IMG/VR virus record: IMGVR_UViG_3300012971_000018
Location: 1 to 64,000 of that record
Source of the DNA: a virus
Reading direction: 5' to 3' (one strand)
DNA length: 64,000 nt
The notes beneath the pieces were generated by a model, which was not told the origin of the DNA, searched no databases, and saw only the letters and a program-made list of their open reading frames with translations. The first letter of the stretch is position 1. Each line of letters begins with the position of its first letter. This document shows positions 1 to 64,000 of this stretch, piece by piece. Both the position numbers and the translations under genes were made by a program.

Positions 1-2
1 AC

Positions 3-734
3 GAGATTGTCCGGCTCTATTGGCAGCACAAGGTCCGGACGTTCAAGATCGTGGACGAGATGTTTGTCCTTAACGAGAAGCACTACACCGCGATCTGCAA
101 CGGTCTAATCGCCTCCGGGATTGCCAGCGAGCTAAACATTTGGGCCTACGCGCGGGTCGATACGGTTAAGCCCAATACGCTTGCCATGTTCCGCAAGGCC
201 GGTTTCCGGTGGCTGGCGCTCGGGATCGAGAGCGGGTCGAAGCACGTCCGCGACGGTGCCGACAAGGCGTTTAGGAACGACGACATTATCGGGGTCGTGC
301 GCGCGATCCAGGGCGCCGGCATTAACGTAATCGGCAACTACATCTTCGGGCTCCCGGACGATACCCTTGCGACCATGCAGGAGACCCTTACGCTGGCGGT
401 CGCGGCGCAAACCGAGTTCGCCAACTTCTACTGTGCGATGGCGTACCCGGGGTCCCGGCTCTACACGGATGCCGTGGGGTCCGGTCGGGTAGACCTCCTG
501 CCGAAGACCTGGGCGGGGTACTCGCAGCACAATGCCGAATGCACCCCGCTGGCGACCGAGACGCTAAGTGCTGCCGAGGTGCTCGCCTTCCGCGACGCGG
601 CCTTTACGGCCTACTTCCAGCAGGAGGGCTACCGCATAACGATCCGGCGGAGGTTCGGGCAGGAGACGCTCGACCATGTCGACAAGATGACCACCTACCG
701 GCTCCCGCGGAAGCTCCTACAGAATGCCGTGTAA
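3..734 (+). CDS. Cobalamin-binding (class B-like) radical SAM protein, 5'-truncated by window edge
   Basis: Frame open from base 3; FKIVDEMF, ARVD, LGIESGS, YIFGLPDDT and AYPGS.LY motifs typical of the C-terminal barrel of B12-dependent radical SAM enzymes; CxxxCxxC lies outside the window. Confidence 0.8.
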   Translation, partial: EIVRLYWQHKVRTFKIVDEMFVLNEKHYTAICNGLIASGIASELNIWAYARVDTVKPNTLAMFRKAGFRWLALGIESGSKHVRDGADKAFRNDDIIGVVRAIQGAGINVIGNYIFGLPDDTLATMQETLTLAVAAQTEFANFYCAMAYPGSRLYTDAVGSGRVDLLPKTWAGYSQHNAECTPLATETLSAAEVLAFRDAAFTAYFQQEGYRITIRRRFGQETLDHVDKMTTYRLPRKLLQNAV

Positions 735-897
735 CCATCTCTACGCCCAATACCCGGTCGACCCACGGACCGGTAAGCGCCTCGACAGCAGGGGCATGGC
801 CATGTTCGGAGTGTATTTCAATCTCCGTAGCTTCTGCATGAAATGCGGGGAGCCAAAACCGGAACCACCCGGACCGTCGGTCGAAGACCAACCATGA
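724..897 (+). CDS. Small putative zinc-binding protein (57 aa)
   Basis: Read manually: MPCNH...FCMKCGE; stop overlaps next ATG (ATGA). Confidence 0.5.
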   Translation: MPCNHLYAQYPVDPRTGKRLDSRGMAMFGVYFNLRSFCMKCGEPKPEPPGPSVEDQP

Positions 898-1973
898 CTT
901 ATCTTCCATCCGAATTCTCGGTCGGCAATTTTAACAAGATGACGTACGTCTGTTGGTTCCGGATACCCACGTCCTATGTAGCTCCGCCGCAGAACCCGGC
1001 TACTTTCTACGATCCACCGTTTGTCTATCCTTGTCTGCTAAGCTGGGGCGAGCAGAGCGCGCTGCATTTTATTGGGAATGACGCTGGCGATAACGAGGTA
1101 TTTGCCAGCGACACCATCCGGAGCTGCATCGCGTTTACTTCGGCTTTGAATAATCTTGGCGTGTGGTTCGTTACGACCGACATGGGGCCGAACGTCCATA
1201 CGGATACGATAGAGACGCTTCCGGCGACCGTCGCTGGTTCTGCTCCGCCGATTGGCGGCCCTGGACCGTTTGGTGGCAACAAGGACTGCGCAAACGGCGG
1301 AATAGGAGCCAGCATAGCTCCGGCGATTACGTTAGGCGAATGGAACGTGTTGTTCATATCGGCGGATTTATCCGCGGCAGACGCCGATCCAAATCCGATT
1401 AACAACCAGTACACCGGAAATAAGGTCATAAAGTTTGTATTCAACGGAGTTAACCACGGCCCCCTTGGTTATGCTGGCCAGTGTTACCTGCCTTTTACCG
1501 GTGGCGGCTTTGGCAATCCGCTGTGCAACCACAATGGCAATGTGGTTGGCGGTGTTATCGGCGTGCCGGATACGGTTACGAGCGTGGACGGCAACTACGT
1601 GCCACAGGCGTCGTCCCAGTTGGGATTAAGCGATGGGCAGTCGGCTCCGAACATTAACATTTCGGGAGTGCCGCAGCCGGAGATCGAGCTGGCTCTGGTA
1701 CAGGTCTGGTTTGGCCAAGCCATCGATCCGACAGTTGGGAACCTAACCAATTTCTGGCGCATCGACAGCACGGTAAGCCCACCGAAAATCTACCCTGTGG
1801 GTGGGGTCGTGGCGGCCAAGGCTTTTGGGACCCCGGACATCTGGCTGGAGCGGGACAACGTAAGTGGTGTGTTCTTCGAAGAGAACCAAGGGACCGCCGG
1901 GAATTTTACGGTTGTTGGGACCGCTCCGCCGGACTACACCCCGGGACCGGAAGAAGGCATCGAGGTCGATTAG
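894..1973 (+). CDS. Virion-associated beta-sandwich (LamG/ConA-like) protein, paralog 1
   Basis: T..CWF, GEWN.LFIS and QVWFG pattern; C-terminus similar to 3343-4413; ATG at 894 in ATGA overlap. Confidence 0.5.
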   Translation: MTYLPSEFSVGNFNKMTYVCWFRIPTSYVAPPQNPATFYDPPFVYPCLLSWGEQSALHFIGNDAGDNEVFASDTIRSCIAFTSALNNLGVWFVTTDMGPNVHTDTIETLPATVAGSAPPIGGPGPFGGNKDCANGGIGASIAPAITLGEWNVLFISADLSAADADPNPINNQYTGNKVIKFVFNGVNHGPLGYAGQCYLPFTGGGFGNPLCNHNGNVVGGVIGVPDTVTSVDGNYVPQASSQLGLSDGQSAPNINISGVPQPEIELALVQVWFGQAIDPTVGNLTNFWRIDSTVSPPKIYPVGGVVAAKAFGTPDIWLERDNVSGVFFEENQGTAGNFTVVGTAPPDYTPGPEEGIEVD

Positions 1974-2360
1974 ATGAATCTAAACCAGATAGCGAATGGG
2001 GTAATAACGGCGGTCTCGCCGAACATCCAGATATCGGTGCAGGTTAACACCAGCAACGCGATCTCCCCCGACGGGACCCGTGTGCCGTCCTACGCGCTGC
2101 CGGTCCAGGTCCCCGGGCAGGTCCAGCCGCTAAGCTTCCGCGACATTACGCAGGCTGACTCGATGAACCTCCAGGGGACGCGCAAGGCGATTTACATTAA
2201 CGGCTTCGTCGACGGATTGTCGCGCCCATTCAATAAGGGCGGCGATCTAATAACGGTGCTCGAAGGGCCGGATGCCGGTCTCTACCTCGTCGCGCAGATC
2301 GAGGAGACGTGGATTAACGGGTGGTGCAAGGCGCTCTGCACTTTGCAGAACAACAGCTAA
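1974..2360 (+). CDS. Neck / head-closure protein
   Basis: 128 aa, QVQPLS...GGDLI...W pattern; position upstream of tail terminator and sheath. Confidence 0.6.
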   Translation: MNLNQIANGVITAVSPNIQISVQVNTSNAISPDGTRVPSYALPVQVPGQVQPLSFRDITQADSMNLQGTRKAIYINGFVDGLSRPFNKGGDLITVLEGPDAGLYLVAQIEETWINGWCKALCTLQNNS

Positions 2361-2533: not shown

Positions 2534-3346
2534 ATGTCCGCTATTATCCCGGTCCCGGCACAAACCGACGTAAACACCGCGTTGCGAGCCTTCCTGCTGG
2601 CGATTATGCCGGCCGGGATGGCGATCGTACGCGGGCAGGTTAACCGCGTCCCCGAGCCTAACGGCCAGGACTTTATCGTCTTCTGGCCGCTCCACGCCAA
2701 CCGCCTAACGACCAACATCGACCACAGCCAGGACACGGTCTTTACCGCATCGATTACGGGAACGGTAATGACCGTTACGGCCATGCAGGCCGGCTCCATC
2801 GTTCCCCCGGTCCAGCTCTTCGGCGTCGGGCTCTCCGGCGGCACGGCAACGTTCGTAACGGCGCAGCTTACCGGCTCGGTCGGTGCGGTCGGGACCTACA
2901 CCGTAACCCCGAGCCAGACCGTCGGCTCGTCGACGATCTCGGCCGGGACGACGACCGTTACGCAGGAGACCGAGATCGTAATGCAGCTCGACGTCCATGG
3001 GCCTAGCTCGTGGAACAACGCGCAGGTTATCTCGACGCTCTTCCGCGATGCCTATGCGGTCGATTTCTTTAATGCGTCGTACCCGACGATAACGCCGCTC
3101 TATGCCGACGATCCGCGCCAGTCCCCGTTCGTAAATGCGGAGCAGCAGTACGAGGACCGCTGGATAATCGAGGCCCGCCTCCAAGCGAACCAGACCGTTC
3201 CGATCCCGCAGCAGTATGCCGGTGTTGTCGACATCGTTCTGGCGAGCGTCGAGGTCGGCGTTCCCATTTACATCTCGACCGAAGGCGGCGACAACTTCGT
3301 TATGGAAGACGGTCTAACGCTAATAGTTACGGAGGGAAGTCCGTGA
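2534..3346 (+). CDS. Tail terminator / neck protein with inserted beta module
   Basis: RGQVNRVPEP, QLDVHG and EQQYEDRW motifs; position before sheath. Confidence 0.65.
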   Translation: MSAIIPVPAQTDVNTALRAFLLAIMPAGMAIVRGQVNRVPEPNGQDFIVFWPLHANRLTTNIDHSQDTVFTASITGTVMTVTAMQAGSIVPPVQLFGVGLSGGTATFVTAQLTGSVGAVGTYTVTPSQTVGSSTISAGTTTVTQETEIVMQLDVHGPSSWNNAQVISTLFRDAYAVDFFNASYPTITPLYADDPRQSPFVNAEQQYEDRWIIEARLQANQTVPIPQQYAGVVDIVLASVEVGVPIYISTEGGDNFVMEDGLTLIVTEGSP

Positions 3347-5753: not shown

Positions 5754-7481
5754 ATGACGACCATTCCGGCTTCTGCTATCGTCGACGTTACGCCTAGTGT
5801 GCTCGCGGCGGGCGGCGACGCTCTCGACCTCGTTGGTCTGCTCCTAACGACCTCCACACGCGTCCCGATCGGGACTGTGGAGAGCTTCGCCAATGCAGCC
5901 GCGGTTAGCTCCTTCTTCGGGCCGACTTCGGACGAGTTTAACATCGCGACGGAGTACTTTAACGGGTTCGACAACTCGTTGTCCAAGCCCGGGTCGGTCC
6001 TGTTCGCGCAGTACCCGACCACTGCGGTCTCGGCCTATCTGCAAGGCGGGAACATATCCGGGCTGTCGCTAACCCAGCTCCAGGCGCTCTCGGGGCAGTT
6101 AGGCGTTGTTATCGACGGGGTGCAAAAGACCGCCTCGATCTCGCTCGCCGCTGCGACCAGCTTCTCGAACGCCGCGTCCATTATCGGGCAGGCGCTTGGG
6201 ATAACCGGTACGCTGGCCGGCTCGGGGGTCGGCTCGATTGCCGGTGGGACGATGACGGTGTCGTCGCTGGGGTCGGGAACGGTTGGGGCCACCGACGTCG
6301 TCTCCGGCACGGGCGTTACCGCCAACACCTACGTTACCGGCCAGCTTAGTGGCACGGTCGGCGGGGTGGGTACCTACGGCGTAACACCAACGCAGAACGC
6401 CCTAAGCGAGCCGCTTAACTTCTTTAACCCGGCCGTGGTCTACGACAGTATTTCCGGCGGGTTTATAATCCGCTCGGGTACGACCGGAGCCAGCTCGACG
6501 ATAACGTTTGGGTCCGGACCGTTGGCGACCTCGCTGTCGCTAACGCAGACGCTCGGGGCGGTTACGTCGCAAGGGGCGATAGCGGCGACGCCGATAGCGT
6601 TTATGACCGCGCTTACCCAGATTACCCAGAACTGGGCCACGTTTATGACCCTCTTCAATCCGGACGCTGCCGGATTTGCCAACAAGCTCCTGTTCGCGCA
6701 GTGGACCAATTCGACGAACCAGCGCTACATGTACGTCGTGTGGGACCTCGACCTTTCGCCGTCGGTCTCCAATCCGGCCAGCGCCAGCTTCGGGCAGGCG
6801 ATTATCGCGGCGAACTACTCGGGGACCTGCCCAGTCGGACAGGACGGGACCGGCGGCTCGCCACGGGATATCTGTGCCTTCGTCTGTGGTGCGGTGGCCT
6901 CGATCGACTTCGCTGCGGTTAACGGGCGGACCACGCTCGCGTTCCGCTCGCAGACCGGACTGCTGGCGACCGTTACGTCGCAGACCGCGGCGAACAATCT
7001 CGACGCCAACGGCTACAACTACTACGGCGCGTTCGCGACCGCCAACGAGCAATTCGTGTTCTTCTATCCGGGCTCGGTCTCCGGACCGTTCCTGTGGATC
7101 GACAGCTACATTAACCAAATCTGGCTAAACAACAACTTTCAGCTAGCGTTAATGAACCTGCTTACGACGGCGTTCTCGATCCCCTACAACGCTGCGGGCA
7201 AGACCCAGATTACCGCGGCGCTCGCCGATCCGATTAACGCCGGGCTTTTGTTCGGTGCCTTCCGCGCCGGCATAACCCTCTCGGCCGCGCAGAAGTCCGC
7301 GGTTAATGCCTCGGCCGGGCTCGACATCGCCAACACGCTCCAGAACGTCGGTTGGTACCTCTCGGTTGGCGACGCTACGCCGCAAGTCCGGGCGGCCCGC
7401 GGGTCGCCCCCGTGCACGTTCTGGTACGTCGACGGACAGTCCATCCAGCAGATCGATCTCGCCAGCATTGAGGTGCAATAA
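5754..7481 (+). CDS. Contractile tail sheath protein (DUF3383 type)
   Basis: IPAS.IV.V.P.VL.AGG start, YF.GFDN, NWATF, WIDSYINQIW, IPYN..G, R.ARGSP. Confidence 0.9.
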   Translation: MTTIPASAIVDVTPSVLAAGGDALDLVGLLLTTSTRVPIGTVESFANAAAVSSFFGPTSDEFNIATEYFNGFDNSLSKPGSVLFAQYPTTAVSAYLQGGNISGLSLTQLQALSGQLGVVIDGVQKTASISLAAATSFSNAASIIGQALGITGTLAGSGVGSIAGGTMTVSSLGSGTVGATDVVSGTGVTANTYVTGQLSGTVGGVGTYGVTPTQNALSEPLNFFNPAVVYDSISGGFIIRSGTTGASSTITFGSGPLATSLSLTQTLGAVTSQGAIAATPIAFMTALTQITQNWATFMTLFNPDAAGFANKLLFAQWTNSTNQRYMYVVWDLDLSPSVSNPASASFGQAIIAANYSGTCPVGQDGTGGSPRDICAFVCGAVASIDFAAVNGRTTLAFRSQTGLLATVTSQTAANNLDANGYNYYGAFATANEQFVFFYPGSVSGPFLWIDSYINQIWLNNNFQLALMNLLTTAFSIPYNAAGKTQITAALADPINAGLLFGAFRAGITLSAAQKSAVNASAGLDIANTLQNVGWYLSVGDATPQVRAARGSPPCTFWYVDGQSIQQIDLASIEVQ

Positions 7482-38238: not shown

Positions 38239-38322
38239 GAGGTCCAGGGGTGTTATTGATAATTATTTTAGTCAATGTTTCCAATGGGTTACGATGGCCG
38301 CACAGGTGTCGATTAATTCCCC

Positions 38323-46842: not shown

Positions 46843-46843
46843 T

Positions 46844-47758: not shown

Positions 47759-48405
47759 AGCGGTTGGCGATCGTTACCGGGGCGGCTGGGGGCATTGGCA
47801 AGGCCGTTTGCGATAAGTTCCGGCAAGATGGTTGGGATGTCGTTGGCGTCGATATCGAGACCGACTGCGGGATTGGGAGATACGATGTGTCCGATCCGGG
47901 TGCAGTGCGCGAGCTTTTCCAAAAGATTAAAGGGGGCCGGAGCGAGAGGAAGGCGTTGGTAAACTGTGCGGGAGCGATCGAGTTCAATTCGATCCCCGAC
48001 ACTACTCTCCAAGACTGGAACCTTATGCTCCAGCATAATCTAACGACGGCGTTCGTTATGACCCGCGAGTTTGCCAAGTTCGGGTTGGGGACGATTGTAA
48101 ATGTTAGCTCGGTTAACGCGACCCTTTCGAGCGAGCACCGGGTAGGCTATGCGGCGGCGAAGGGCGGCATCGAGGCGTTTACCCGCATTTCGGCAACCCA
48201 GCTCGGCCCTAATATCCGGGTTAATTGCGTGGCGCTGGGGCCGATCCAGACCCGACAGGCAAACGGCCTGTCGCGACGGAATGTGCTGGGCCGGATCGGC
48301 TTGCCGGTCGAGGCGGCGGACCCGATCGTGTGGCTCTGTGGCGATGGAGCGTCGTACATTACCGGAGCAACGCTGGCAGTGGATGGGGGCTACGGGCTTA
48401 TTTAG
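47755..48405 (+). CDS. Short-chain dehydrogenase/reductase
   Basis: TGAAGGIG, VNCAG, VNVSS, YAAAK, IRVN, VDGG. Confidence 0.95.
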   Translation: MKRLAIVTGAAGGIGKAVCDKFRQDGWDVVGVDIETDCGIGRYDVSDPGAVRELFQKIKGGRSERKALVNCAGAIEFNSIPDTTLQDWNLMLQHNLTTAFVMTREFAKFGLGTIVNVSSVNATLSSEHRVGYAAAKGGIEAFTRISATQLGPNIRVNCVALGPIQTRQANGLSRRNVLGRIGLPVEAADPIVWLCGDGASYITGATLAVDGGYGLI

Positions 48406-48414
48406 GAGGGCCGA

Positions 48415-48771
48415 ATGGTGGTGTCTGCTCGGTGGGCAAATCGAGAGGATGCTCAACTAGATGGATACGGTATATTCTGGTGCGATGGGAAATCGCATCG
48501 TGCCCATCGTTGGATTTTTGAGAGGTGTGTTCGTAAGCTTAAGCCTTATGAGCAGGTTCTACATAAATTCGATAACACATGCTGCGTTAATTTAGACTGT
48601 TTGTATGTGGGAACCCACGCGGATAACATGCGGGACCTTCGCGAGCGGGGTAATGCTAAGGGCATTCCAAAGAGTGAGGAATGGAAGCGAAAAGCTCGTG
48701 CTGTCCCACAAGAAGTCCGCCGTCGTGCGGCTTTATTGGCTTGGAGACGTCGCCATGCAAAGCGAACTTGA
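48415..48771 (+). CDS. Free-standing HNH homing endonuclease, possibly degenerate
   Basis: GYG.F, RAHR, VLH..DN..CVN...L.VGT..DN..D; Cys where the second His is expected. Confidence 0.75.
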   Translation: MVVSARWANREDAQLDGYGIFWCDGKSHRAHRWIFERCVRKLKPYEQVLHKFDNTCCVNLDCLYVGTHADNMRDLRERGNAKGIPKSEEWKRKARAVPQEVRRRAALLAWRRRHAKRT

Positions 48772-50137
48772 TTGGATTAACCAGGACACCGCTAAGGAAA
48801 CGTACAATTACTACATGCGTACCGACCCGTCTATGCGCGAGATACTCGGCCCTATCGAGGAAGTATACGATGAGCACACAGGTCGGAAAATGCGTAGGCG
48901 GTTAGCAAAAGTGGCGATGATCCGAGGCTCAAAAGACGGTAAGGAAACTATAATCTATCTAGACCCGCTGCCACATGTTAGACTTGACAAGGCCAAGGAT
49001 TTGCAAGGTTGGTACAGTGGAAAAACAGACGGTGCTACTCGTGGGCAAAGAGACCGTCCTTGTATGACGGATGCTATCCTTACCCAACCCTATGGGGGCA
49101 CTTGCGAGGTCCAATGTGGGTTTTGCTACGTGAATTCTGGGTTTAGAGGATATCGCGGAGCTGGATTGACTACAGTTCCAATGGGATATGGAACGCATGT
49201 GCGCGCGCAGCTTAGTTCTATGAAGGTTGCTACGGCTGGATATTTTACGAGCTTTCACGATCCTTTCAACAGTTTGGAGGAGTACTACCACAACACCCAG
49301 CAGGGAGCCCAGGCATTTGTTGATTATGACCTTCCAATATTCTTCCTATCGCGGCTGTCCTATCCGGAGTGGGCGATAAACCTGCTACGTACTAACCCTT
49401 ACAGCTACGCGCAGAAATCGATCAATACGCCGGACCCCGAGGATTGGAAGAAGCTAAGCCCGGGTGCGCTGCCGCTCGCCGACCACTTCGCGGAGATTGC
49501 CAAGCTGCGCGCGGCCGGCATCTACGTGTCGATCCAGGTTAACCCCGTCGTCCCCGGCATTACGACCCACGAGGAGGTGGAGCAGCTATTCGAGAAGCTC
49601 GCCGCGGCCGGTGCCAACCACGTAATCGTTAAGTTCGTCGAGGCGAGCCACGCCTGGGTCGGCGCGATGGTGGAGCGGATGGCTACCCGGTTCGGCGCCA
49701 ACCGGGCGGCGCATTTCCGCGAGCTGTTCGTCGAGAATTCCTGCGGCGGGCAGAAGACCATAGCCGAGGAGTACCGGCGCGAGGGCCATACGCGGTACCG
49801 TAAGCGGGCTACTGAATTGGGGATGACCTATGCGTTGTGCTACGAGTACACGCGCACGCCCGACGGCTGGAAGTCGATGGGACCGGAGTTTCTAACGTCG
49901 GAGCAGTGCCACGGCCACCGGGTGCCGATGCATGTGCGACGAATGGGCAGATTTAGTCCGCTCTCGGTATGTCCTCCATCGGGGTGCCTGTCGTGCGCCG
50001 ACGAGAGCGGGAAAGGAAAATGCGGTTCGACCCTGCTCGGAGCGGCGAAGGCACTACGGATATCCGATTTGCGCAAGGATTGGGATGGAGACCCGGAGCA
50101 TGTTAGGACCCGCCGAGTTCGGGCGCCAGCTAATTAA
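48755..50137 (+). CDS. Radical SAM enzyme (hypermodification isomerase-like)
   Basis: CEVQCGFCY, DPF, second Cys cluster at C-terminus; GGAGA RBS. Confidence 0.85.
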   Translation: MQSELDWINQDTAKETYNYYMRTDPSMREILGPIEEVYDEHTGRKMRRRLAKVAMIRGSKDGKETIIYLDPLPHVRLDKAKDLQGWYSGKTDGATRGQRDRPCMTDAILTQPYGGTCEVQCGFCYVNSGFRGYRGAGLTTVPMGYGTHVRAQLSSMKVATAGYFTSFHDPFNSLEEYYHNTQQGAQAFVDYDLPIFFLSRLSYPEWAINLLRTNPYSYAQKSINTPDPEDWKKLSPGALPLADHFAEIAKLRAAGIYVSIQVNPVVPGITTHEEVEQLFEKLAAAGANHVIVKFVEASHAWVGAMVERMATRFGANRAAHFRELFVENSCGGQKTIAEEYRREGHTRYRKRATELGMTYALCYEYTRTPDGWKSMGPEFLTSEQCHGHRVPMHVRRMGRFSPLSVCPPSGCLSCADESGKGKCGSTLLGAAKALRISDLRKDWDGDPEHVRTRRVRAPAN

Positions 50138-50876
50138 GACCGGAGACCTCGATCCGGTCTACATCGCCATTAACGGTGCAAAGCTCCCCCACAAGCAACT
50201 GGCCAAGCTCCTGTTCGCCTATTGGTGTTTCTACCATCTGGGCCTCGCGGCGTGGCTATCCGAGCAGAAACACTATTGGCGATCGATGCGGACCGCGGCG
50301 GAGAACGTAACCGAGACCCCGTACGGCGGTCCCTGGCCGCGCGGTACGGAGCGTCGCCACTTCCGCGGTTACCTGGCGGTGCGTGCGGTGGACATCCTGT
50401 CGAGGAAGTCCCCCGAGGCGTATGTCGAGGCTCTGTTGAAGATGCGGACCGTGGCGGAGATTATGGGCGCTACCAGCCAATGGCCGCTGTTTGGACCGTG
50501 GATCGGCTACAAGATTGCGGATATGGTCGATCGGTGTCTTGGCTCTCCGGTCGAGTTTACCCCGGACGTCTGCCTGCTCTACAAGGAGCCCCGGGCCGCA
50601 CTCGATCTTATCCCCGGGGCGGTTTCGGCCGAGCAGAAGCTGGTCGATTTGCTGGGCGAGCTGGACGACCAGAAAGCCCCGCCAACGGGCGACCGGGCGC
50701 TGGGCTTCGCCGAGGTCGAGACCGTGCTGTGTAAGTGGAAGTCCTACCGTAGCAAGCATTATTTCATTGGGAAGGACATCTACGAGGTGCGCCACCACTT
50801 GGCCCATTGGGGTGCGGGCACGATGCTAAAGGCCATGCCGGCGGTGCCGTTCATATTCCGGGGGCGGATGCCATGA
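50100..50876 (+). CDS. Amino acid:DNA transferase (aGPT-Pplase2 family)
   Basis: DLDPVY, YW.FY, RGTERRHFRG, FGPWIGYKIADM, E.ET.LCKWK. Confidence 0.8.
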   Translation: MLGPAEFGRQLIKTGDLDPVYIAINGAKLPHKQLAKLLFAYWCFYHLGLAAWLSEQKHYWRSMRTAAENVTETPYGGPWPRGTERRHFRGYLAVRAVDILSRKSPEAYVEALLKMRTVAEIMGATSQWPLFGPWIGYKIADMVDRCLGSPVEFTPDVCLLYKEPRAALDLIPGAVSAEQKLVDLLGELDDQKAPPTGDRALGFAEVETVLCKWKSYRSKHYFIGKDIYEVRHHLAHWGAGTMLKAMPAVPFIFRGRMP

Positions 50877-51436
50877 TCGTTAATGTGCGCGGCGGGAGCG
50901 GAAGTGGCAAGACCCATGTGGTGCGCGAGCTAATGAATGGCGGCAGGCCGGTCTCGCTCTATGGGGTGCTAGGGATAAAGTATCCCGAAGCCTATCGGGT
51001 CTCGCTCCCAGGCGTAACGCAGCCCCTGCACATTATCGGACCCTACACGACGAACGTCGGGGGATGCGACAGGCTGTCCTACGATAAGATCATTCCTCTG
51101 CTGGAGAAGTACGAGAAGCGGGGCCACGTCCTGTTCGAAGGTCTGCTCGTATCGGACAACTACGGCATTATCGGAGAGTGGCTTACCAAGCGCGGCCACA
51201 ACGCGCTTATCGTGTTCCTGGATACTTCGCTGGCAGTATGTCTGGAACGGCTGCGCATCCGTTCGGGCTACGATGCAGACTTGCGGAAGCCGCTAACGAC
51301 GGTGGCCATGCGGTACGAGACCATAAAGCGCGCGAAGGCAAAGTTCGAGAAGGAAGCCAAGGTTAGCCTGCTCGAAGTTTCCTCGACAAGCGCGGCGGAC
51401 CAGATACACCAATGGATAATTGACAATGATAGATGA
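50873..51436 (+). CDS. P-loop nucleotide kinase
   Basis: IVNVRGGSGSGKT, GGCD, LFEG, FLDT....C..R...R. Confidence 0.8.
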   Translation: MIVNVRGGSGSGKTHVVRELMNGGRPVSLYGVLGIKYPEAYRVSLPGVTQPLHIIGPYTTNVGGCDRLSYDKIIPLLEKYEKRGHVLFEGLLVSDNYGIIGEWLTKRGHNALIVFLDTSLAVCLERLRIRSGYDADLRKPLTTVAMRYETIKRAKAKFEKEAKVSLLEVSSTSAADQIHQWIIDNDR

Positions 51437-52301
51437 ACAACTGCATTGGTTTACGCACTGGGTATCCGAGCGCGAGAAGGTTCGGATCGCCAAGCTGGGC
51501 GGCGCCCGGCCGCCGTGGACGAACGACCCGATTATCGCCAAGTACCGGTTCTGTAACGTCCGGCGGAAGGACGATCGCGTCTCGCGCTGGTTAATCAAGA
51601 ATGTCCTTACCGCGGAAATCTTCCACCGTGTCGGCCCCAAGGCGTTTATGGAGTTTACCGCGTTCTGCCGGTGGAACAATTGGCCGCCGTCGATCGGTGC
51701 GGTCTTAGAGCGCGATCTTTTGCGGCCTAGCATCGATTGGGGTGCCGTCGTGCGGGTCCTGCAAGATCGCAAGCGGCGCGGGGAGAAGGTGTGGACGGGT
51801 GCCTACGTGGTCTATGCCGATGCCAAGACCGACAAGGCGGAATACGTGGCCAGTGTCGCGCGGGCCGTCGGCGAGATGTGGGACCGGCTACAGACCGATA
51901 CCCGGATTGGATATCGCCAGCGGGTGTGGGAGACGCTAACCGATATCCGTGGCATGGGCTCGTTCATGGCTGGGCAGATCGTCGACGATTGGACGTGGAC
52001 ACCGTTGCTGTGGCTATCGCGCGATCTCTACGAATGGGCGCCGCAAGGCCCGGGGTCGCTGCGGGGGCTAAACCGGATTATCGGCCACCCGCTTACCCAG
52101 AGCATAATTATGAACGACTGGATGGCCCATCTTAACGCTTGCCGCAGGCACATAATCGAGACGCTTGGCAAGGACTATCGCAACCTTACGGCGCACGATG
52201 TGCAGAATTGCCTGTGCGAGTTCGACAAGTACATGCGGGTTAAGAACGGGGAAGGCAAGCCGCGGTCGACGTACCAGCCGGAGACGGGGTATGTGGTATG
52301 A
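51426..52301 (+). CDS. 5-hydroxymethyluracil DNA kinase (aGPT-Pplase1 family)
   Basis: ERE, PWT.DPI...RFCNVRR.DD.VS, FMAGQ...D, GPGS.RGL, QNCLCEFDKY.R. Confidence 0.85.
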   Translation: MIDEQLHWFTHWVSEREKVRIAKLGGARPPWTNDPIIAKYRFCNVRRKDDRVSRWLIKNVLTAEIFHRVGPKAFMEFTAFCRWNNWPPSIGAVLERDLLRPSIDWGAVVRVLQDRKRRGEKVWTGAYVVYADAKTDKAEYVASVARAVGEMWDRLQTDTRIGYRQRVWETLTDIRGMGSFMAGQIVDDWTWTPLLWLSRDLYEWAPQGPGSLRGLNRIIGHPLTQSIIMNDWMAHLNACRRHIIETLGKDYRNLTAHDVQNCLCEFDKYMRVKNGEGKPRSTYQPETGYVV

Positions 52302-52501
52302 GTAAGAAACCTGTCGGCTACTTCGTCTGGACCCGCCGTAATGGCAGGCTGTCCCCCCGGAAGTATGGCGAGGACTTCCACCGTGCCGGTCGCAAGGATG
52401 GCACAGAATACGACCACGATGCCCCACCGGCTTATCCACTAACCGAAGCCGAGTGGGGTATGTCTTTGGACGAGCTGGCAAGGAGATATCCGCATGGGTA
52501 G
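52298..52501 (+). CDS. Hypothetical protein
   Basis: ATGA overlap. Confidence 0.5.
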   Translation: MSKKPVGYFVWTRRNGRLSPRKYGEDFHRAGRKDGTEYDHDAPPAYPLTEAEWGMSLDELARRYPHG

Positions 52502-52892
52502 CCAAGCAGGACGCAAAGTACAGAGCTGGGTTAGCACCCCGCAGGGCTGTTTTCTTAAGGGGCTCCTGCATGCTCTTGGGAACCGGGGATGGATGGACAT
52601 GGGGCTGCGTGGAAGTGCCTATAACGAATACGTCTACAGGCATTACGCTCGCCTCGTGCCTTACCACCAGGATTATTGGGAACGTCCGCGGACCAAAAAG
52701 AGCATTGTGGGTCGCGCTATGACCACGACAAGATCGCACCATGCTTCGAGGGAGAATGCATTCGAAAATGACTATACTGCGCCATACATGGGATTGGTCT
52801 TTAATCTGTTGGAGCGCGACAAGCCCTGGGAACGTGCGGAGCTGGACGCGCGTATCGCGCGTATCGCTGCGATAGCAGCGAGGGCGGCATGA
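52494..52892 (+). CDS. Hypothetical protein
   Basis: AAGGAG RBS; ATGA overlap with HD gene. Confidence 0.5.
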   Translation: MGSQAGRKVQSWVSTPQGCFLKGLLHALGNRGWMDMGLRGSAYNEYVYRHYARLVPYHQDYWERPRTKKSIVGRAMTTTRSHHASRENAFENDYTAPYMGLVFNLLERDKPWERAELDARIARIAAIAARAA

Positions 52893-53446
52893 CCCCGTTG
52901 GAGCGCGTAATTGCGATCCGGACCGGCGGCGGCACCGAGCGCGCCCACGGCATTCGCCACCATGGCTCCTATTCGGTCGCCAGCCATACATGGGGCGTTC
53001 TAACGCTGGTCTACGTGCTGTGGGGACCCGAGTTCTTTGCCCGGGTCGCCGCCGCGGTAACGTTCCACGACGTTCCCGAGGCTTGGGTCGGCGACATCCC
53101 GGCGCCGACGAAGCGTTACAATATGTCGGTTAAGCTCGCGGTCGACCAGATGGACCAAGCCGTGCTTAAGCGGCTCGATCTGCTTACGCCGTACGTGGGT
53201 CTTAGCTTAGAGGACAAGGCCAGGATTAAGGCCGCGGACATGCTGGAGCTGTATCTGTGGGCGGCGGAGGAAGTCGCGGGGGGCAACAGGCACGCCGCCT
53301 GTCTTATGCGGGAGCTAATACGCTATTTCGGCGAGCAGAGGATGCCGGACGAGTTCTACCCGATATGGACGGAGCTTGCCACCGGCGGCAGCGTAGAGCA
53401 CGCGAGCGACGGCCTTATCTACGAGATAAACAAGAAAGCGGAATAG
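52889..53446 (+). CDS. HD-domain deoxynucleotidase (YfbR-like)
   Basis: SVASH, HD.PE...GDIP.P.K, K.AD.LE. Confidence 0.85.
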   Translation: MTPLERVIAIRTGGGTERAHGIRHHGSYSVASHTWGVLTLVYVLWGPEFFARVAAAVTFHDVPEAWVGDIPAPTKRYNMSVKLAVDQMDQAVLKRLDLLTPYVGLSLEDKARIKAADMLELYLWAAEEVAGGNRHAACLMRELIRYFGEQRMPDEFYPIWTELATGGSVEHASDGLIYEINKKAE

Positions 53447-55336
53447 ATGATTACACTTATGGTGGGTTCGGTGGACGAGGCGCTCTGTCGGGGCGTCGCG
53501 CTCCTGCGCAAGGTCGGCGTAAAGCAGACGTCCCGGGCCGGCGATGTGTGGGTCGCACCCAGCCCGGTTACGACGATCTTCCACGATCCGGTAAAGCGGG
53601 TGCTGTTTAATGCGCATCGCGATGCCAATCCGTTCTTCCATCTGTTCGAAAGCCTGTGGCTGCTGGCCGGTCGCGACGATGCTACGTGGCTGGACCAGTT
53701 TGTCGGCGACTTCTCTTCGCGCTTCGCCGAGAGCGACGGAGTGCTCCATGGTTCCTACGGCCACCGGTGGCGGGAGGCGCTCGGCCTCGACCAGCTATTT
53801 GAGGTCGTGGAGAAGCTAAAGGCCAACCCCGACGATCGGCAATGCGTCCTCCAGATGTGGGACGCGCGGGACGACTGGCACGCGGATGGAGAGTATTCCG
53901 CGCACTCCGGATGCAACGATTTGCTAGGCAATTGGAAGGATCGGCCGTGTTTGGCGGGGGATACCGTTGTGTGGTCGCCCGAGGGGGACCTTCCTATTGC
54001 TGCGTTGGCGGAAAAGTTTGCGGCTGGTGTAAAACGTTGGCCCGTTTATTCCGTGAACGAGATGTCCAAGAAGTTGGAGATAAGGTGGGCTACAAATTGC
54101 TGGAGAAGCGGACGAAGGCGTACTGTAGTTCTAACTTTTGATGATGGTACGTCAATTCGAGCAACAGCGGACCACGTATTTTACGTATATCCTAAGAGGA
54201 TTGGTAGAAATGGGAAGGTAAGCGCCTTGGCGGCAAAACCGTGTCGGGTAGATAAGCTGCGGCCGGGGGATCGGGTATTAGCAACACAGCGGTTTTCCGG
54301 CAAGAAGGGCCACGAGGTAATTAAAAAGTGTTTGGCCGGGAATACGGCCTTTCGCAATATGCAGCAGACGCACAATGCGTATTATCGTCTTGTGTATGGC
54401 TCAATTCCAGAAGATTGTGAGCTTCATCATGTAGACGAAGTTAAGCGTAACAATAAGATCGCCAATTTGGAGCCACTCGATCCAGGAGAACATAGCCGAT
54501 TGCACAAAGTTGGGGATCGAAATCCGATGAGAAACATGACGGCTGCGCAGCACCGAGCGCGTGGTCGTAAGCAGTCGGTGTCGCTAAAGGCTGCTTGGGC
54601 TAAGCTTACTCCGATGCAGCGTGTTGCGAGATCGAAGGGTCTCCCCATAACCAACCACAGGATTGTTAGTATCGGTCCGGGACCGATCGAGGATGTATAC
54701 GATTTTACGGTTCCCGGTTTCCACACTGCAATAGTTGGTACTGGTGTGGTAACTCATAATTGCAACACCCATGCCTACCTTCGGGTTCGGGATGGGCTCT
54801 TGGACCTTACGGTGTGCTGCCGGTCGAACGATATTATCTGGGGCGCATACGGTGCCAATGCTGTGCAATTTTCCATGCTGCAAGAGTACCTCGCGGCGCG
54901 GATCGGCGTCGGCGTCGGCATCTATTACCAGATTAGCAACAACTACCACGCTTACGACAATGTTATCGACTGGAGCTTGGGCGAGAAGAACGCGCTAACG
55001 GATTGGGGGTGGTCGTACCGGGACTTCTGTGTCGAGCCGCTTGCGTTGGTTACCAATCCGGAGACGTTCGACCGGGAGCTGTCGTGCTTCTTTAAGCGGC
55101 CGGAGAGTTTTCTTCCGCTCGATCCCGTCCTTGCCCTGCGCACAGGTGGGCGGAACGAGTACGAGAACTTGTTCTTCCCTCGGGTAGCTGTCCCGCTTTA
55201 CCGCGCCATTCGGACGTGGAAGGACAAAGCGGTAGAGGACCGGAAGAAATTGGCAATACAGGAGTTGGATAGCGCACCAGCCGAGAACGACTGGAAGCTG
55301 GCCGCCCAGCAGTGGATGCAGAAGAGGATTAAATGA
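53447..55336 (+). CDS. dUMP hydroxymethylase (thymidylate synthase fold) with intein
   Basis: SRAG, ANPFF...E, YG.RW, DRQ, spliced DRPCN, RSND..WG..GAN (Asn implies dUMP), N.HAY. Confidence 0.85.
   Translation: MITLMVGSVDEALCRGVALLRKVGVKQTSRAGDVWVAPSPVTTIFHDPVKRVLFNAHRDANPFFHLFESLWLLAGRDDATWLDQFVGDFSSRFAESDGVLHGSYGHRWREALGLDQLFEVVEKLKANPDDRQCVLQMWDARDDWHADGEYSAHSGCNDLLGNWKDRPCLAGDTVVWSPEGDLPIAALAEKFAAGVKRWPVYSVNEMSKKLEIRWATNCWRSGRRRTVVLTFDDGTSIRATADHVFYVYPKRIGRNGKVSALAAKPCRVDKLRPGDRVLATQRFSGKKGHEVIKKCLAGNTAFRNMQQTHNAYYRLVYGSIPEDCELHHVDEVKRNNKIANLEPLDPGEHSRLHKVGDRNPMRNMTAAQHRARGRKQSVSLKAAWAKLTPMQRVARSKGLPITNHRIVSIGPGPIEDVYDFTVPGFHTAIVGTGVVTHNCNTHAYLRVRDGLLDLTVCCRSNDIIWGAYGANAVQFSMLQEYLAARIGVGVGIYYQISNNYHAYDNVIDWSLGEKNALTDWGWSYRDFCVEPLALVTNPETFDRELSCFFKRPESFLPLDPVLALRTGGRNEYENLFFPRVAVPLYRAIRTWKDKAVEDRKKLAIQELDSAPAENDWKLAAQQWMQKRIK
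53948..54760 (+). mobile_element. Intein with in-frame HNH endonuclease (271 aa)
   Basis: CLAGDT start, ATADH block B, HHVDEVKRNN..NL......EH...H, VYDFTV...THN|C end. Confidence 0.92.
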
Positions 55337-55767
55337 CAAACTATGTCGCGCAGGTCGGTGGCGACCACTACAAGTCGGCGTACGCGCATTGGGACCTCGC
55401 GATCGATATTCGTTGGGGCTATCTCGACGGTTCCGCGGCGAAGTACATATCGCGGTGGCGCAAGAAGGGTGGGGTCCAAGACCTGCGCAAGGCGCTAAGC
55501 TACATCGACAAGCTAATTGGGACGTTGGCGACCGAGAAACAGCAGCTTCCGCCGGCTGTTGCAAACACTCTCCAATTGGAACGGTTTTGCGATGCGCATG
55601 GCTTCGTTAAGGGTTCGCTGGAGCGGACTGCAATAATTTATCTGGGGTCGTGGGCGTTTCGCAGCGACCTCGAAGTCGCGCGGGTAGCAGTGGTGGAGCT
55701 TATCGCCGAAAACGAGGTCCCGACGACCGACAGTAACAAGCACGCCAAGCAGGAGGAGCAATGCTAG
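55333..55767 (+). CDS. DUF3310 (T7 gp1.7-like nucleotide kinase family) protein
   Basis: QVGGDHYK, KYISRW.KKGG..DL.KA..Y. Confidence 0.85.
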   Translation: MTNYVAQVGGDHYKSAYAHWDLAIDIRWGYLDGSAAKYISRWRKKGGVQDLRKALSYIDKLIGTLATEKQQLPPAVANTLQLERFCDAHGFVKGSLERTAIIYLGSWAFRSDLEVARVAVVELIAENEVPTTDSNKHAKQEEQC

Positions 55768-57370: not shown

Positions 57371-60300
57371 ATGGGGTTGTTGTATGCGGCCCAGGCTACA
57401 GTCGATGTTAGGGCGCGCCAGGAAGCCGTGCTCTACCAACGGATGGGCTGCAATATGTGCCCGCTTAACGATGTGCAGCCGGGGCGCGCCAATGCGACGG
57501 GTTCGGAGCATCCGCTAATATTATTCATAGGCGAAGCCCCCGGCAAGGAGGAGCAACGGACCGGCGAGCAGTTCGTCGGCGAGTCCGGGCAACTTCTGCG
57601 CCCGCGCATCCCGGAGGAATGGCTGCCGGATATTCGATGGACCAATACTGTTCATTGTCGTCCCTCGTATGGCAACGGCCACAATCGGACCCCCGAGCAC
57701 GACGAGATCGAGTGCTGCCGGCCGCGGTGGGTTGCCGACATCGAACGGACCAAGCCGAAGGCGATCTTTGCTTTCGGTAACGTCCCACTCCTGGCGATTA
57801 CCAACTTTACCGGCATAACGCTGTGGCGCGGGAGGCGGCTGCCGGTAAGGATCGGGTCGCACGTCTGCTGGCTCTATCCCATGCTCCATCCGGCCCACAT
57901 CCTGCGCCAGCGGCGGGACGAGGATCGTGGCAAGGATGCCAGGTTTGTTGGCTCCGAAGAGGAGCGGATGTTCGAGTTCGATCTCTACAAGGCATTGGAC
58001 GAGGTCGACGCCGGACTGCCACGGCCGATCGTCCACGACGAGAAGGAAGCCCGCCGCGGCGTCGAGATTGTAACCGAGGGCGGGCGGGAAGGGCTGCACC
58101 GGATCGAGGCCGCGCTTAGGTGGGCGTCCGCGCAGGACGATATCGGGTTCGACTACGAGACGCTGGGGCTACGGCCGTATGGTGCCAATGCCAAGATACT
58201 TACGGTCGCGGTCGCGACTGCGGACCGTGCGATTGCGTTTCCGATCCACCATCGCGAAGCCCGGTTCTCCGACAAGGAGCGCAAGACAATCGAGGATTTG
58301 GTCTGCAATTTCCTGTGCCAGTCCGGGCGTGTGTGGGTGCATAATCTGTCCTTCGAGATGGAATGGACGGCGGTTAAGTTCGGCCGCGACCTGCTGTACG
58401 CTACGCAGTGGCAGGACACGGCGACGCAGGCTTCCATTATTGACGAGCGGAAAGGCAATACCAAGCCGGGATGCTTTTCCCTCGAATGGCTCGTAATGCA
58501 GTACTTCGGCTTTAACCTTAAGAAGCTGTCCCCGCTAAACAAAGCTAATCTCGACCGCGAGCCGCTGCCAAAGGTGCTCGCCTATAATGCGATGGACGCC
58601 AAGTACCATCTGCGGCTTGGGCTGGAGCAGCAGGTAGTCATAAAGCAGCAGGGTCTGCAATCGGTCTACGAGCTGTCGTTGCGGCGGGTGCCGGCGGTCG
58701 TTACGTCGCAGGTCCTGGGCGTGCCGGTCGACCAGGACGAGAACGAGCGTCTGCACGCCAAGTACGCCAAGCGGGTCGCCAGCCTGGAGGCCGAAATCCA
58801 GCAGGTGCCGTTAATCCAGGGGTACAACAGCGACAACGCCGAGCCGTTTAACCCCGGCTCGAACCCGCAGTGCGTCGACGTTTTCTATCGGCGGCTAAAG
58901 CGCAAGGAGTGTCTGGTCGTCGACAAGTTCTCCAAGCGGGAGCGGCTGTCCTGCAATGAAGACGTACTAACCAAGATCGAGCACCCGCTGTCGAAGCTAA
59001 TCGTCCGCTGGCGCAAGGCGAAGCGGCAGGACTCGACCTACATCCAAGCATTGGCCCCGGGGACCGAGAATTCGGCGCTGTGGCCCGACGGTCTTCTGCA
59101 TAGTACGTTCAACACTTACTGGGTCGAGACCGGCCGGCTAAGCTGCTCGGCCCCTTGGACCGAGGTTAAGACCAGTCGTGGTGTGGTCCAGATCAAGGAC
59201 GTTATTGCAGGCGATTTGGTGTGGACCCACAGACAACGCTGGCGTTTAGTTACGCGGGCTTGGAGCAAAGGCTTCGAACAGATGTTCGACGTTGTATTGT
59301 CTAATGGGAAAGTTTTGACTTGCACCAAAAACCACCGTCTGCTATCCAAGGCCAGTGGCTGGATAACGGTTGGAGAGTTGTATGACGTATTCCAAGAGAT
59401 GGGTCGAGACGCCGGGGAATATAAAGCGCGTACTGGCGCTTTATCGCAGCAAGGAGTTGGTTCCAACAGAGCAGATAGCCAAGACGTTGGGCACATCGGT
59501 ACCAAACGTCTACGAGGCTATCAAACGGAACATGCCATTGGTCGAGAAGCAGGCTCTATCATCTGTTCGCTATTCGGCATCGAAGCTGGGCACAAAAAAT
59601 CCGATGCTGGGGCGAACTGGAGATCGGCATCCGAATTGGAAGGGGGAATGTTTGGATGGTCATGGTGGTTATTTGACCATAAAGGTTGGAAAGCGTCGTA
59701 TTTTTCTCCACCACCACTTGCTTATGCAGGCATTGGGTCTACCAGAAGTCCCACGCGGTTGGATGGTACACCATATCGATGGCGACCCGTTGAACAACGA
59801 CGTGGACAATTTGGCTTTGGTGACGGCTCGCGGACACAAAGCTATCCACTACAGACAGTTGGAGACCAAGACGTTGCGATTAAAGAAATCAAAGCTGGCG
59901 GAAGCTTTGAAGTATTTGATCTAACAGTAGAGGAGGACGCCAGCTATGAGACCTGTGGAGTATTTTCGCACAATAGCGAATTTCCAAACCTTCAGAATTT
60001 CCCGAAGCGCGACGGCGAGGCCGTCGAGGTCCGCCGGCAGGTCCAGGCCGCCCCTGGATATAGTATCATATCTCTGGACCTGGGCCAGATCGAAGCCCGT
60101 GTCGTCGCGATGTTTACCAAGGACCCGGTCTATGTAAAGCAATTGTGGGACAAGTTCGACATCCACAAGGATTGGGCCGAGCGGATCGCTTTCGCCTATC
60201 CGGATCGGATCGGCGGGTCGAAGAACCTAAAAGACCCGAAGGTAATGAAGACCTTTCGCAGTGACATAAAGAACCAGTGGACCTTCCCTCTGCTCTACGG

Positions 60301-62304: not shown

Positions 62305-62512
62305 GGTAGGTTAGGTGGTGTAGGGCAAGGTGAGGTAGGGTTTGGTTCGGTAGGATGCGGTCTGGTACGGTTAGGTCGGGTCCGGTGCGGTCAGGTAAGG
62401 TAAGGCGCGGTGGGGTTAGGTCCGGTGGGGTAGGGTCGTGTCGGGTTGGGTTCGGTGAGGTCTGGCGAGGTCAGGTTGGGTTGGTTGGGGTATGGTTTGG
62501 TAAGGTAAGGGT
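62305..62512 (+). repeat. Degenerate pentamer array, about 41 units of GTNNG
   Basis: Strict 5-nt period, e.g. gtctg gtacg gttag gtcgg gtccg gtgcg gtcag gtaag gtaag. Confidence 0.9.
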
Positions 62513-62518
62513 AATAGC

Positions 62519-63055
62519 ATGGTCGAGCGCAGACGATCCCAACCGGCGGAAACGCCAATCGATCCCCAGCCGCGGATGTCGATCGAGCAGCTACGCGAGA
62601 GCATGGAAATCCGCCAGGAGGGCCAGGCGCTCGACGCCTGCCTGGGCGAGCAGCCCGATCTGTTCTTCCATGCCGCGGACGGTTACCGGCTGGCGGTCGC
62701 GGCCCGCGATGCGCTCGATCTCGATCTCGATTTTCTAAAGGCCGATCTGGCCGAAAGCTTCCGCGACGAAGCCTTGCAGAACGAAGAGAAGATTACCGAG
62801 GCGGCGATAACCCGCAAGCTGGCGCTTAACGATGTGGTGCAGGACATGGAGCGCGACCTGCTCCGCCTGCGTGGCGAGGTCGACCACTGGGCGGCGATTA
62901 AGGACGGCTATACCCAGCGATCGTTCATGTTGCGCGAGCTGGTTCGGCTAATCACTGCCCGTATGGCTAACCTGCATCTGGAGCGTTCCGTCGCCGGCTC
63001 GCAGGAGGACCTCGTGGAGGCGCGACGGCGGGCGGCGAGAGCGGCAGGCCAATAA
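62519..63055 (+). CDS. Helical protein, UvsY-like recombination mediator (tentative)
   Basis: QP.LF, KITEAAI, W.A.K..Y.QRS.ML; position before SSB. Confidence 0.5.
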   Translation: MVERRRSQPAETPIDPQPRMSIEQLRESMEIRQEGQALDACLGEQPDLFFHAADGYRLAVAARDALDLDLDFLKADLAESFRDEALQNEEKITEAAITRKLALNDVVQDMERDLLRLRGEVDHWAAIKDGYTQRSFMLRELVRLITARMANLHLERSVAGSQEDLVEARRRAARAAGQ

Positions 63056-63204
63056 TGGAGCTGGTCCTCTACGGCGTTGCCCTGCTGCTGTTTATCGCCG
63101 TCGCCTGCTACGTGGGCGCCCGGGCGATCGGTATAGCTTGGTATCGCACCAAGCTGGAGTACATGCGATCTGTGTTCCGAGAAGGAGACCAAAATGGCAA
63201 ATAA
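63055..63204 (+). CDS. Small membrane peptide (49 aa)
   Basis: Read manually: MELVLYGVALLLFIAVACYVG...; TAATG coupling. Confidence 0.5.
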   Translation: MELVLYGVALLLFIAVACYVGARAIGIAWYRTKLEYMRSVFREGDQNGK

Positions 63205-64000
63205 GCCGAAGCTAAGATACTATGGTGCCAACCGTACGGTCGAGGACGTAATGCGGACGCAATACGTCCCGTCCGGGAATTACGACGCCATTATCCAGGA
63301 GGGCTTCCCGGTATTCAAGCCGAAGGACGGCGAGAACGTTATCCGGCTTATGCAGGCGAGCTGGCCGGAGGAGGAAATTCCGAAATGGGGCACGGACTGG
63401 GCGATCCTCATTTCGGTCCACAACAATGTCGGCGACCGCGGCACCTTCCTGTGTCTCGATGCCATGTATGGCGAGCCTTGCCCGGTCTGCGAGGCGGCCA
63501 TGGAGGAGCCCGACAAGGACATTCGCTTCGAGCTGGAGGCCAACAAGCGCGCGCTGGCGTGGCTTATTAACCGGAAAGACCCGAGCGTCGGACCGCAGGC
63601 ATGGTCGATGCCGTTAAAGAAAGTCTGGAAGGTTATTAATGCCCGCTCGCGCGACCGCAAGACCGGTGCGTTGCTGCACATTGACGATCCGGAGGCAGGG
63701 TACGACGTGGTCTTTACCGGCGAGAATACCGGCAAGAAGACCGCCGACTACCAGGGGATCGAGATCGAGCGCGAGGCCACCATGCTAGGCCCCGACGACG
63801 CGACGCAGCAGAAGTGGATCGACTACATTGTGGAGAACCCGCTGCCGTCGATCCTAAACATCCCGGACCCCGAGTACATTCGTAAGCGCCTGTTCGGGAG
63901 GGTAAGCCGCGCCCGCCCGGCCGACGCTGTGGAGGAGGCGACCGGTGCGATGCCCGCGCGGCGGCGACCGGTAGCCCGGTCCGACGACGGTGTGCCGACC
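63194..64000 (+). CDS. gp32-like single-stranded DNA-binding protein, 3'-truncated
   Basis: AAGGAG RBS; read manually: FKPKDGEN.IR, VH, C......CPVCE, DDPE.GYD. Confidence 0.75.
   Translation, partial: MANKPKLRYYGANRTVEDVMRTQYVPSGNYDAIIQEGFPVFKPKDGENVIRLMQASWPEEEIPKWGTDWAILISVHNNVGDRGTFLCLDAMYGEPCPVCEAAMEEPDKDIRFELEANKRALAWLINRKDPSVGPQAWSMPLKKVWKVINARSRDRKTGALLHIDDPEAGYDVVFTGENTGKKTADYQGIEIEREATMLGPDDATQQKWIDYIVENPLPSILNIPDPEYIRKRLFGRVSRARPADAVEEATGAMPARRRPVARSDDGVPT

Follow-up and report, generated by a model that had tools for sequence, protein, structure and literature searches.

The phage contig IMGVR_UViG_3300012971_000018 is 111,906 bp long (G+C content 0.60), and the window analysed here, a stretch of 64,000 nucleotides, is its first 64 kb. 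Its annotated genes are those of a contractile-tailed phage and include tail sheath, SbcCD, a DnaB-like helicase, primase, a PolA-type DNA polymerase with an intein, clamp, clamp loader and endolysin, with portal, RecA and a gp32-like protein lying to the right of these; a cluster of genes predicted to hypermodify thymidine is also present. The subject of this account is the depletion, throughout this DNA, of the trinucleotides TCA and TGA, together TSA (S standing for C or G), of which about three quarters are gone on both strands and more than 90% in some contexts. Gene calls were made with a simple caller of our own, start codons being approximate, and scans against family libraries covered about 80 of about 130 proteins.

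Within the window, TCA (182 copies) and TGA (214 copies) are the two rarest trinucleotides, with observed/expected ratios (O/E) of 0.24-0.27 when base composition sets the expectation and 0.27-0.30 when a first-order Markov model does. Dinucleotide-preserving shuffles give 1383 ± 29 expected copies against the 396 present (z = -34), which bears out the window-wide, two-strand avoidance described in a first-pass annotation of this DNA, and the effect extends over the whole genome, where 687 copies stand against about 2,690 expected (O/E 0.26) and every 15-kb piece has an O/E of 0.22-0.29. When codons are shuffled synonymously in 130 coding sequences, the word class stands at 520 against 1951 ± 30 (z = -48). 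Sense and antisense O/E (0.235 and 0.219) reveal no transcription-strand asymmetry, and minus-strand genes are, as the annotation had it, depleted to an equal degree. Likewise, depletion is uniform across functional modules (O/E 0.17-0.29), and intergenic DNA is depleted equally (TCA 53/168, TGA 47/215). In the 1728-bp sheath gene an earlier hand count proved exact: eight TSA sites, five of them in-frame ATG-A and unavoidable, against 37.8 expected, along with 47 TTA plus TAA. The choice of stop codons is affected as well. All 42 TGA stops in the genome occur as ATGA, GTGA or TTGA and none as CTGA, and at least 22 of them overlap a called start; the four in the rightward structural arm each overlap the next start codon, so that the claimed confinement of TGA stops to such overlaps in that arm holds in every case. 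Compensating tRNAs for the rare codons forced in this way are not present in the genome.

The routes by which the word has been lost differ with reading frame. The annotation had proposed a codon-preserving shuffle as the decisive check on junction-specific depletion, and the depletion persists under it: xTC-A occurs 162 times against 684 ± 15 and xTG-A 211 times against 505, while xxT-CAx occurs 44 times against 262 ± 13 and xxT-GAx 128 times against 512 (hyphens mark codon boundaries). In the first pair it is the third base that changes. Leucine CTC and CTG each make up 3% of CTN codons before A, compared with about 80% combined elsewhere, and third-base choice shifts before A in the same manner for valine, isoleucine, phenylalanine and the leucine TTR codons; the control families GCN, GGN, ACN and CCN, whose second base is not T, show no effect of the next base, in agreement with the original remark that rare third bases go with a following A. 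In the second pair it is the T, codons ending in T falling to 3% before CA and 5% before GA from 14-33% in other contexts. The family of the next codon may be switched too: after xT[CG], arginine is written AGR in 3 of 380 cases versus 201 of 1633 elsewhere (the switch being to CGN), and serine AGY in 12 of 254 versus 561 of 1526 (the switch being to TCN). The share of ATA among isoleucine codons, about 13% otherwise, reaches 32% before A, a change that requires a transversion from ATC. Avoidance thus uses whichever synonymous route is open (a change of third base in xTS-A or of the T in xxT-SAx, or a switch of family in the following codon), and the effect on the proteins themselves is modest, methionine followed by I, M, T, N or K occurring 98 times against 124.7 ± 10.

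Frequent ATA-A had been attributed either to selection or to replacement of methionine by isoleucine; in the sheath, such codons align to isoleucine or valine in 39 homologues and not to methionine, and they are therefore synonymous escapes, which favours the former and not the latter. The excess of TTA and TAA is real (1516 against 1221 ± 25 in the window by dinucleotide-preserving shuffles; O/E 1.4-1.5). It is a by-product, found in frame xTN-A only (929 against 457 and 591 against 267), where no letters but T and A remain, and xxT-TAx is not raised (105 against 141). In intergenic DNA, only about one third of the lost TSA is recovered as TWA (W standing for A or T).

The cause of the depletion is long, genome-wide purifying selection against the double-stranded word T-S-A. 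The alternative listed first in the annotation was a neutral scar, that is, TCA-specific C-to-T deamination or methylation-driven decay of the APOBEC or repeat-induced point mutation kind, acting without selection on the word. The TTA/TAA excess would suit such a scar, as would the ratio of GTT to GTA before A, which mirrors that of GTC to GTG elsewhere. Against it, xxT-CAx and xxT-GAx are down four- to sixfold because the T is lost, xxT-TAx showing no gain, and depletion is no weaker at positions where C-to-T or G-to-A would alter the protein, which argues for selection on the double-stranded word and against deamination; the exchange of AGR and AGY for CGN and TCN, the transversions behind the rise of ATA, and the incomplete intergenic recovery as TWA contradict it further, and a scar is very improbable. 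More remote still is an artefact or an unrelated constraint. Modified DNA is able to cause systematic base-calling errors, but here the letter changed depends on the reading frame and the open reading frames are intact, which neither an error process nor a one-way mutation bias could achieve. Selection on mRNA, whether by an endoribonuclease or through off-frame stops, does not accord with an effect that is strand-symmetric and also intergenic, and avoidance of a CRISPR protospacer adjacent motif (PAM) would be useless with about 690 sites left. The phage does carry VIPR arrays, but VIPR has no PAM-like requirement (bioRxiv 10.64898/2026.04.26.720920) and is for that reason rejected as the cause.

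The GGY-NN guide arrays provide an independent, non-coding signal of selection on the double-stranded word. In all, 420 units occur genome-wide at about ten sites, the last reaching position 110206, and GGT is the default; TSA survives in them as GGT-GA and GGT-CA. GGC replaces GGT in 14 of the 31 units with NN=GA versus 4% of other units (Fisher p = 1.2e-7).

The motif can be drawn more sharply as TCAS. TCAG and TCAC (O/E 0.05 and 0.09) are rarer than TCAA (0.42), just as they had looked by eye. With the unavoidable Met-ATG-A sites set aside, depletion extends to each of the 16 xTCAy contexts (codon-aware O/E 0.01-0.67), rarity following the order G<C<A≈T at +1 and C<A<G<T at -1; CTCAG/CTGAG is near-extinct (1 observed, 81 expected), and TTCAA (0.64) and TTCAT (0.67) are almost tolerated. 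Among the spacings at which TS dinucleotides on the two strands can face each other, TSA alone is purged, O/E being 1.21 for TSSA, 0.85 for TSNSA, 0.93 for SATS and 0.81 for SANTS, the last due wholly to GANTC.

About 690 TSA sites persist, whereas ten non-TSA palindromes of 6 bp have no copy in 112 kb: CTGCAG (PstI), CTCGAG (XhoI), GAGCTC (SacI), GGATCC (BamHI), CAGCTG (PvuII), AGGCCT (StuI), AGATCT (BglII), CACGTG (PmlI), ACTAGT (SpeI) and GGGCCC (ApaI). ACGCGT occurs twice, and CTAG has an O/E of 0.26 across the genome. The absence of these palindromes is heavy classical restriction avoidance, seen despite the predicted DNA modification. GANTC is also rare, at 47 against 222 in the codon-aware shuffle (O/E 0.21), and rarer still in the two closest polymerase relatives (0.00-0.05); despite this avoidance, a CcrM-related N6/N4 methyltransferase with a large insert is encoded just after the portal gene (genome 72855-74228). 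Given that so many TSA sites are tolerated beside palindromes at zero, and that newly acquired DNA is still unpurged, TSA is not a word of which one cut kills; the cost per site is small, graded and additive.

The newly acquired DNA is best illustrated by a gene at genome 83385-84152 with a concanavalin-A-like lectin domain (G+C 0.55; 21 TSA sites, nine of them TCAS), whose O/E is 1.00 from composition and 0.96 by synonymous shuffle. It is probably a very recent acquisition, to judge by these figures; a search for its donor found none, the best homologue being 59% identical and on a 2-kb contig. From this lectin-like gene the O/E descends through the CcrM-related methylase (about 0.5) and the two inteins (0.44-0.51) to core genes (0.07-0.2), a gradient that looks like amelioration of imported DNA. 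The inteins had been thought free of the pattern; they are indeed less depleted, with 11 and 13 sites against about 25, but they are not exempt, the exteins standing at 0.15-0.31. That imported DNA is TSA-normal or less depleted implies that its donors, which presumably share the phage's host, had not been exposed to this pressure.

The genes for thymidine hypermodification lie in a single cluster and, going by their family matches, make up a complete 5-hydroxymethyldeoxyuridine (5-hmdU) kinase/amino acid:DNA transferase (ADDT) pathway. They are predicted to encode a PLP enzyme, an amidoligase, an SDR, a radical SAM protein, the ADDT, a P-loop 5-hmdU DNA kinase, a kinase helical-domain protein, an HD hydrolase, a thymidylate-synthase homologue with an intein, and a DUF3310 protein; the matches include PF18724 (ADDT), PF18723 (kinase helical domain), thymidylate-synthase PHROGs, phrog_9252 (radical SAM) and phrog_7093 (PLP), that to PF18748 being weak and below the cutoff. 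By synonymous shuffle the core genes of the cluster are purged like the rest of the genome (O/E 0-0.23), the PLP, amidoligase and radical SAM genes less so (0.37-0.43, the radical SAM gene at 0.43). A search of viral contigs with the cluster amidoligase found no locus. Kinase helical-domain homologues are rare (316 of 50,697 phage records), and the joint occurrence of this pathway and of avoidance of a T-S word is therefore unlikely to be chance.

Other parts of the genome deserve brief mention. The DnaB-like helicase (40519-42069) and radical SAM (48605-50137) genes have low codon-model scores and were missed by the gene caller. A second amidoligase gene (34733-35899) lies away from the modification cluster, on the minus strand of the leftward early region (32893-35899), near two gamma-glutamyl-cyclotransferase-like genes of the same strand (32893-33624 and 34009-34506). 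Between the divergent leftward and rightward blocks, about 2.1 kb (37432-39585) without a confident gene call hold 11 TSA sites and may contain control or origin elements. Right of the window, a NusG-like gene (genome 65527-66036) adjoins the recA and gp32-like genes, and the right end (genome 105066-109757) encodes split transketolase/E1-like proteins, a DegT-family aminotransferase and an NAD-dependent epimerase/dehydratase, whose annotations together suggest an amino-sugar pathway.

Table 1. Features of the window discussed in the text (window positions).
Feature	Position	Strand	Remarks
TSA-avoidance region	1..64000, continuing across the remainder of the 111.9-kb genome	both	strongest as VTCAS
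Retained TGA, example of a GTGA stop/start overlap	3343..3346	+	
Tail sheath gene	5754..7481	+	PHROG 205
Predicted thymidine hypermodification cluster	46045..55767	+	Pfam and PHROG matches
HNH-containing intein in thymidylate-synthase homologue	53951..54757 (approximate bounds)	+	11 TSA, 24.8 expected; G+C 0.51
DNA polymerase intein	59144..59974	+	13 TSA, 25.6 expected; G+C 0.51
GGY-NN guide-RNA array	62324..62483	+	first of about ten sites, the others right of the window

Two explanations offered in the first-pass annotation, selection against a three-nucleotide target and a connection with thymidine hypermodification by the phage itself, are both viable, and the latter is slightly favoured. 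It is put forward here tentatively, by analogy, as a serious possibility: the cost of TSA would arise from the modification itself. In characterised relatives the modified thymine (T*) appears to sit in TS dinucleotides. Restriction-resistant sites in M6, ViI and PhiW-14 point to modification at TG and TC (PMC6449724), related T-modifying enzymes of phages read NTC or NTG (PMC13229309), and the modification in Pbunavirus was reported in a TG motif (PMC12191111). If the same holds in this phage, TSA is the only word in which each strand would carry a TS-context thymine, the two lying one base pair apart. With both thymines modified, the site might be where a host enzyme docks that recognises modified bases on the two strands, or it might be one that the enzymes with which the phage modifies or replicates its DNA handle badly, an intermediate being left behind, for instance; in either event the phage would have retained the modification and shed the single harmful context. 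In modelling of TagI, two base-flipping domains fit opposite-strand modified bases in the 5-methylcytosine (5mC) staggers 5mCG and 5mCNG but not in G5mC or GN5mC (PMC6212794), and T*SA could be regarded as the thymine analogue of 5mCNG. The restriction of the purge to the TSA offset is compatible with this model, and equally with any TSA-specific agent. Host enzymes that attack T-hypermodified phages have been described, namely the Brig2 glycosylase (bioRxiv 10.1101/2025.10.29.685425) and, according to a literature search, the END nucleases. The narrower proposal, that an undescribed host enzyme (a type IV-like nuclease or a glycosylase) engages T*SA through the modified thymines on both strands and that the phage sheds the word in response, is unlikely as it stands. 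Two variants were abandoned. A general cross-strand clash of TS-context thymines was rejected, the TSA spacing alone being affected, and a double-strand break by clustered excision, in which a glycosylase removes both T*, was set aside because it predicts avoidance of other close spacings too.

Comparison with other phages furnishes objections to this view. The comparison set comprised 151 loci of at least 8 kb with kinase helical-domain, ADDT, sheath, helicase or polymerase homologues, drawn from viral, metagenome and prokaryote collections, and included M6, PhiW-14, ViI, F8, RHph_TM26 and nACB2; none of these loci avoids TSA as this phage does, TCA/TGA O/E ranging from 0.55 to 1.63 with a median of 1.23. 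The annotation had looked to a correlation with gene content; the 59 kinase helical-domain loci span that same range without avoiding TSA, the lowest (L006, 0.55) showing a weak codon-context effect, and O/E is 1.48 in M6, 1.59 in PhiW-14, 1.39 in ViI, 1.30 in F8, 1.45 in RHph_TM26 and 1.23-1.25 in the closest ADDT relatives. Avoidance as a general trait of T-hypermodifying phages was accordingly dropped, these phages, nACB2 and three ADDT loci all standing at 0.55 or above, and since carriers of the pathway do not avoid TSA, a generic TS/TS clash is excluded. A link to the modification must hence assume a special chemistry or host of this phage. Other observations also weigh against it. The flank effects show dyad symmetry only approximately, A at -1 being strongly disfavoured and T at +1 not; GGC is found in none of the 15 guide units with NN=CA, so that either the pressure on TSA acts asymmetrically in the arrays or the guide RNA disfavours GGC-CA; and palindromes that contain TS (those of PstI, XhoI, SacI, BamHI, PvuII, BglII and PmlI) are fully avoided, such that TS-context modification may be poorly protective or not as assumed. 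M6 and PhiW-14 present a mirror image, with xTT-A and xTA-A almost unused (2-3% each) and a TTA/TAA O/E of about 0.2. Shared ancestry was likewise rejected as a source of the trait, relatives by sheath, helicase and polymerase all standing at 0.89-1.58 in the viral, metagenome and prokaryote collections. The phage collection contained no close relative of the genome; the best sheath matches are Burkholderia phages at 56% identity and metagenome proteins at 62-66%, above which no relatives were found. Prophage relatives occur in Rhizobium, Mesorhizobium and Labrys, which, together with the GANTC avoidance common to the nearest polymerase relatives, makes an alphaproteobacterial host likely.

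The link to modification is given a slight preference over an enzyme that acts on plain double-stranded TSA, unmodified or newly replicated, with a low hit rate per site, a rival of nearly equal standing. A frequent-cutting or nicking host nuclease would be one candidate and a TCA-preferring double-stranded-DNA cytosine deaminase imposing a mutational load another; with either, selection would clear the sites wherever a synonymous change allowed it. That this lineage sheds words against DNA-targeting enzymes is evident from the ten missing palindromes, GANTC and CTAG; the asymmetric consensus [C>A>G>>T]TCA[G>C>>W], with CTCAG at its extreme, is as for a single enzyme reading one strand, and a graded cost per site fits mutational load or repairable nicks. 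Three-nucleotide specificity has precedents in the chlorella-virus nickases, in APOBEC3A/B, which prefer TCA, and in T4 endonuclease IV. The last of these prefers dTdCdA (PMC1635256), yet it acts on single-stranded DNA containing deoxycytidine (dC-DNA). Further, literature searches found neither a bacterial defence with a three-nucleotide target nor a DNA-editing antiphage deaminase; the imported lectin-like gene and the inteins are TSA-normal or less depleted although their donors presumably share the host; and it would be a coincidence that the phage carries a T-modifying pathway of a kind known to read TS. It is quite improbable, by contrast, that the phage itself makes a factor recognising TSA that degrades host DNA or silences the host, and protects itself by lacking the word. 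T4 provides the model, its endonucleases II and IV destroying dC-DNA while its own DNA is chemically different (PMC1635256), and many early open reading frames here have no annotation. But the scan of some 80 proteins recognised no nuclease or deaminase besides SbcCD, RusA and HNH homing enzymes, so that neither a phage-encoded deaminase nor a TSA nuclease was recognised by family; modified thymine would already distinguish phage from host at TSA, making avoidance redundant; and about 690 sites remain.

Either of the two leading explanations, if true, would be of consequence. Avoidance of short words is usually read as the fingerprint of restriction enzymes, and here a word of 3 bp is depleted by about 48 standard deviations. 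One outcome would be a DNA-targeting activity of unprecedentedly short specificity; the other, a DNA hypermodification with a sequence-specific cost that shapes codon usage, the choice of stop codons and even Met-X dipeptides. Were a host reader of T*SA responsible, the arms race over DNA modification would gain a new layer, and the enzyme's target would be marked by the TSA sites that remain. Internal controls are already at hand in those sites, in the lectin-like gene that is not purged, and in the guide arrays.

Among known systems, the APOBEC3 footprint in animal DNA viruses is a depletion of TC and TCA; it involves the same trinucleotide, removed where hits are harmful, whereas the present depletion, found in a bacteriophage, is much stronger and fully symmetric between the strands; a literature search found no antiphage DNA deaminase. 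SauUSI is a modification-dependent nuclease acting at S5mCNGS, which T*SA with flanking S resembles. Similarly, the Y*NR stagger fits the dimer geometry of TagI, an SRA-HNH enzyme (PMC6212794). Both, in contrast to what would be required here, read 5mC or 5-hydroxymethylcytosine. We know of no enzyme of the TagI or SauUSI type for modified T in TSA. T4 endonuclease IV (DenB) offers a TCA specificity from the phage world (PMC1635256, PMC2095790), although on single-stranded dC-DNA and in the service of T4 against host-type DNA; no DenB-like nuclease was recognised among the approximately 80 scanned proteins, no direct search with the DenB sequence having been made. The hypermodification systems of M6, ViI and PhiW-14 employ the same enzyme families as are predicted here, and the avoided word is built from their inferred TS context (PMC6449724), but TSA is not avoided in those phages and the present cluster has an additional amidoligase and SDR. 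Closest in form is restriction-site avoidance in double-stranded DNA phages, with which the purge shares the strand-symmetric loss of a short word through synonymous codons and which this same genome also displays in its classical version. Literature searches found neither a 3-bp restriction specificity nor an enzyme with a TSA target. Instead of the near-complete elimination typical of the classical version, 687 TSA sites remain against palindromes at 0, and a word reduced but never eliminated indicates a small additive cost rather than one in which one cut kills. With a word of 3 bp, degenerate at its centre, brought down 4- to 100-fold while about 690 copies are left, the TSA purge is a new and extreme form of word avoidance.

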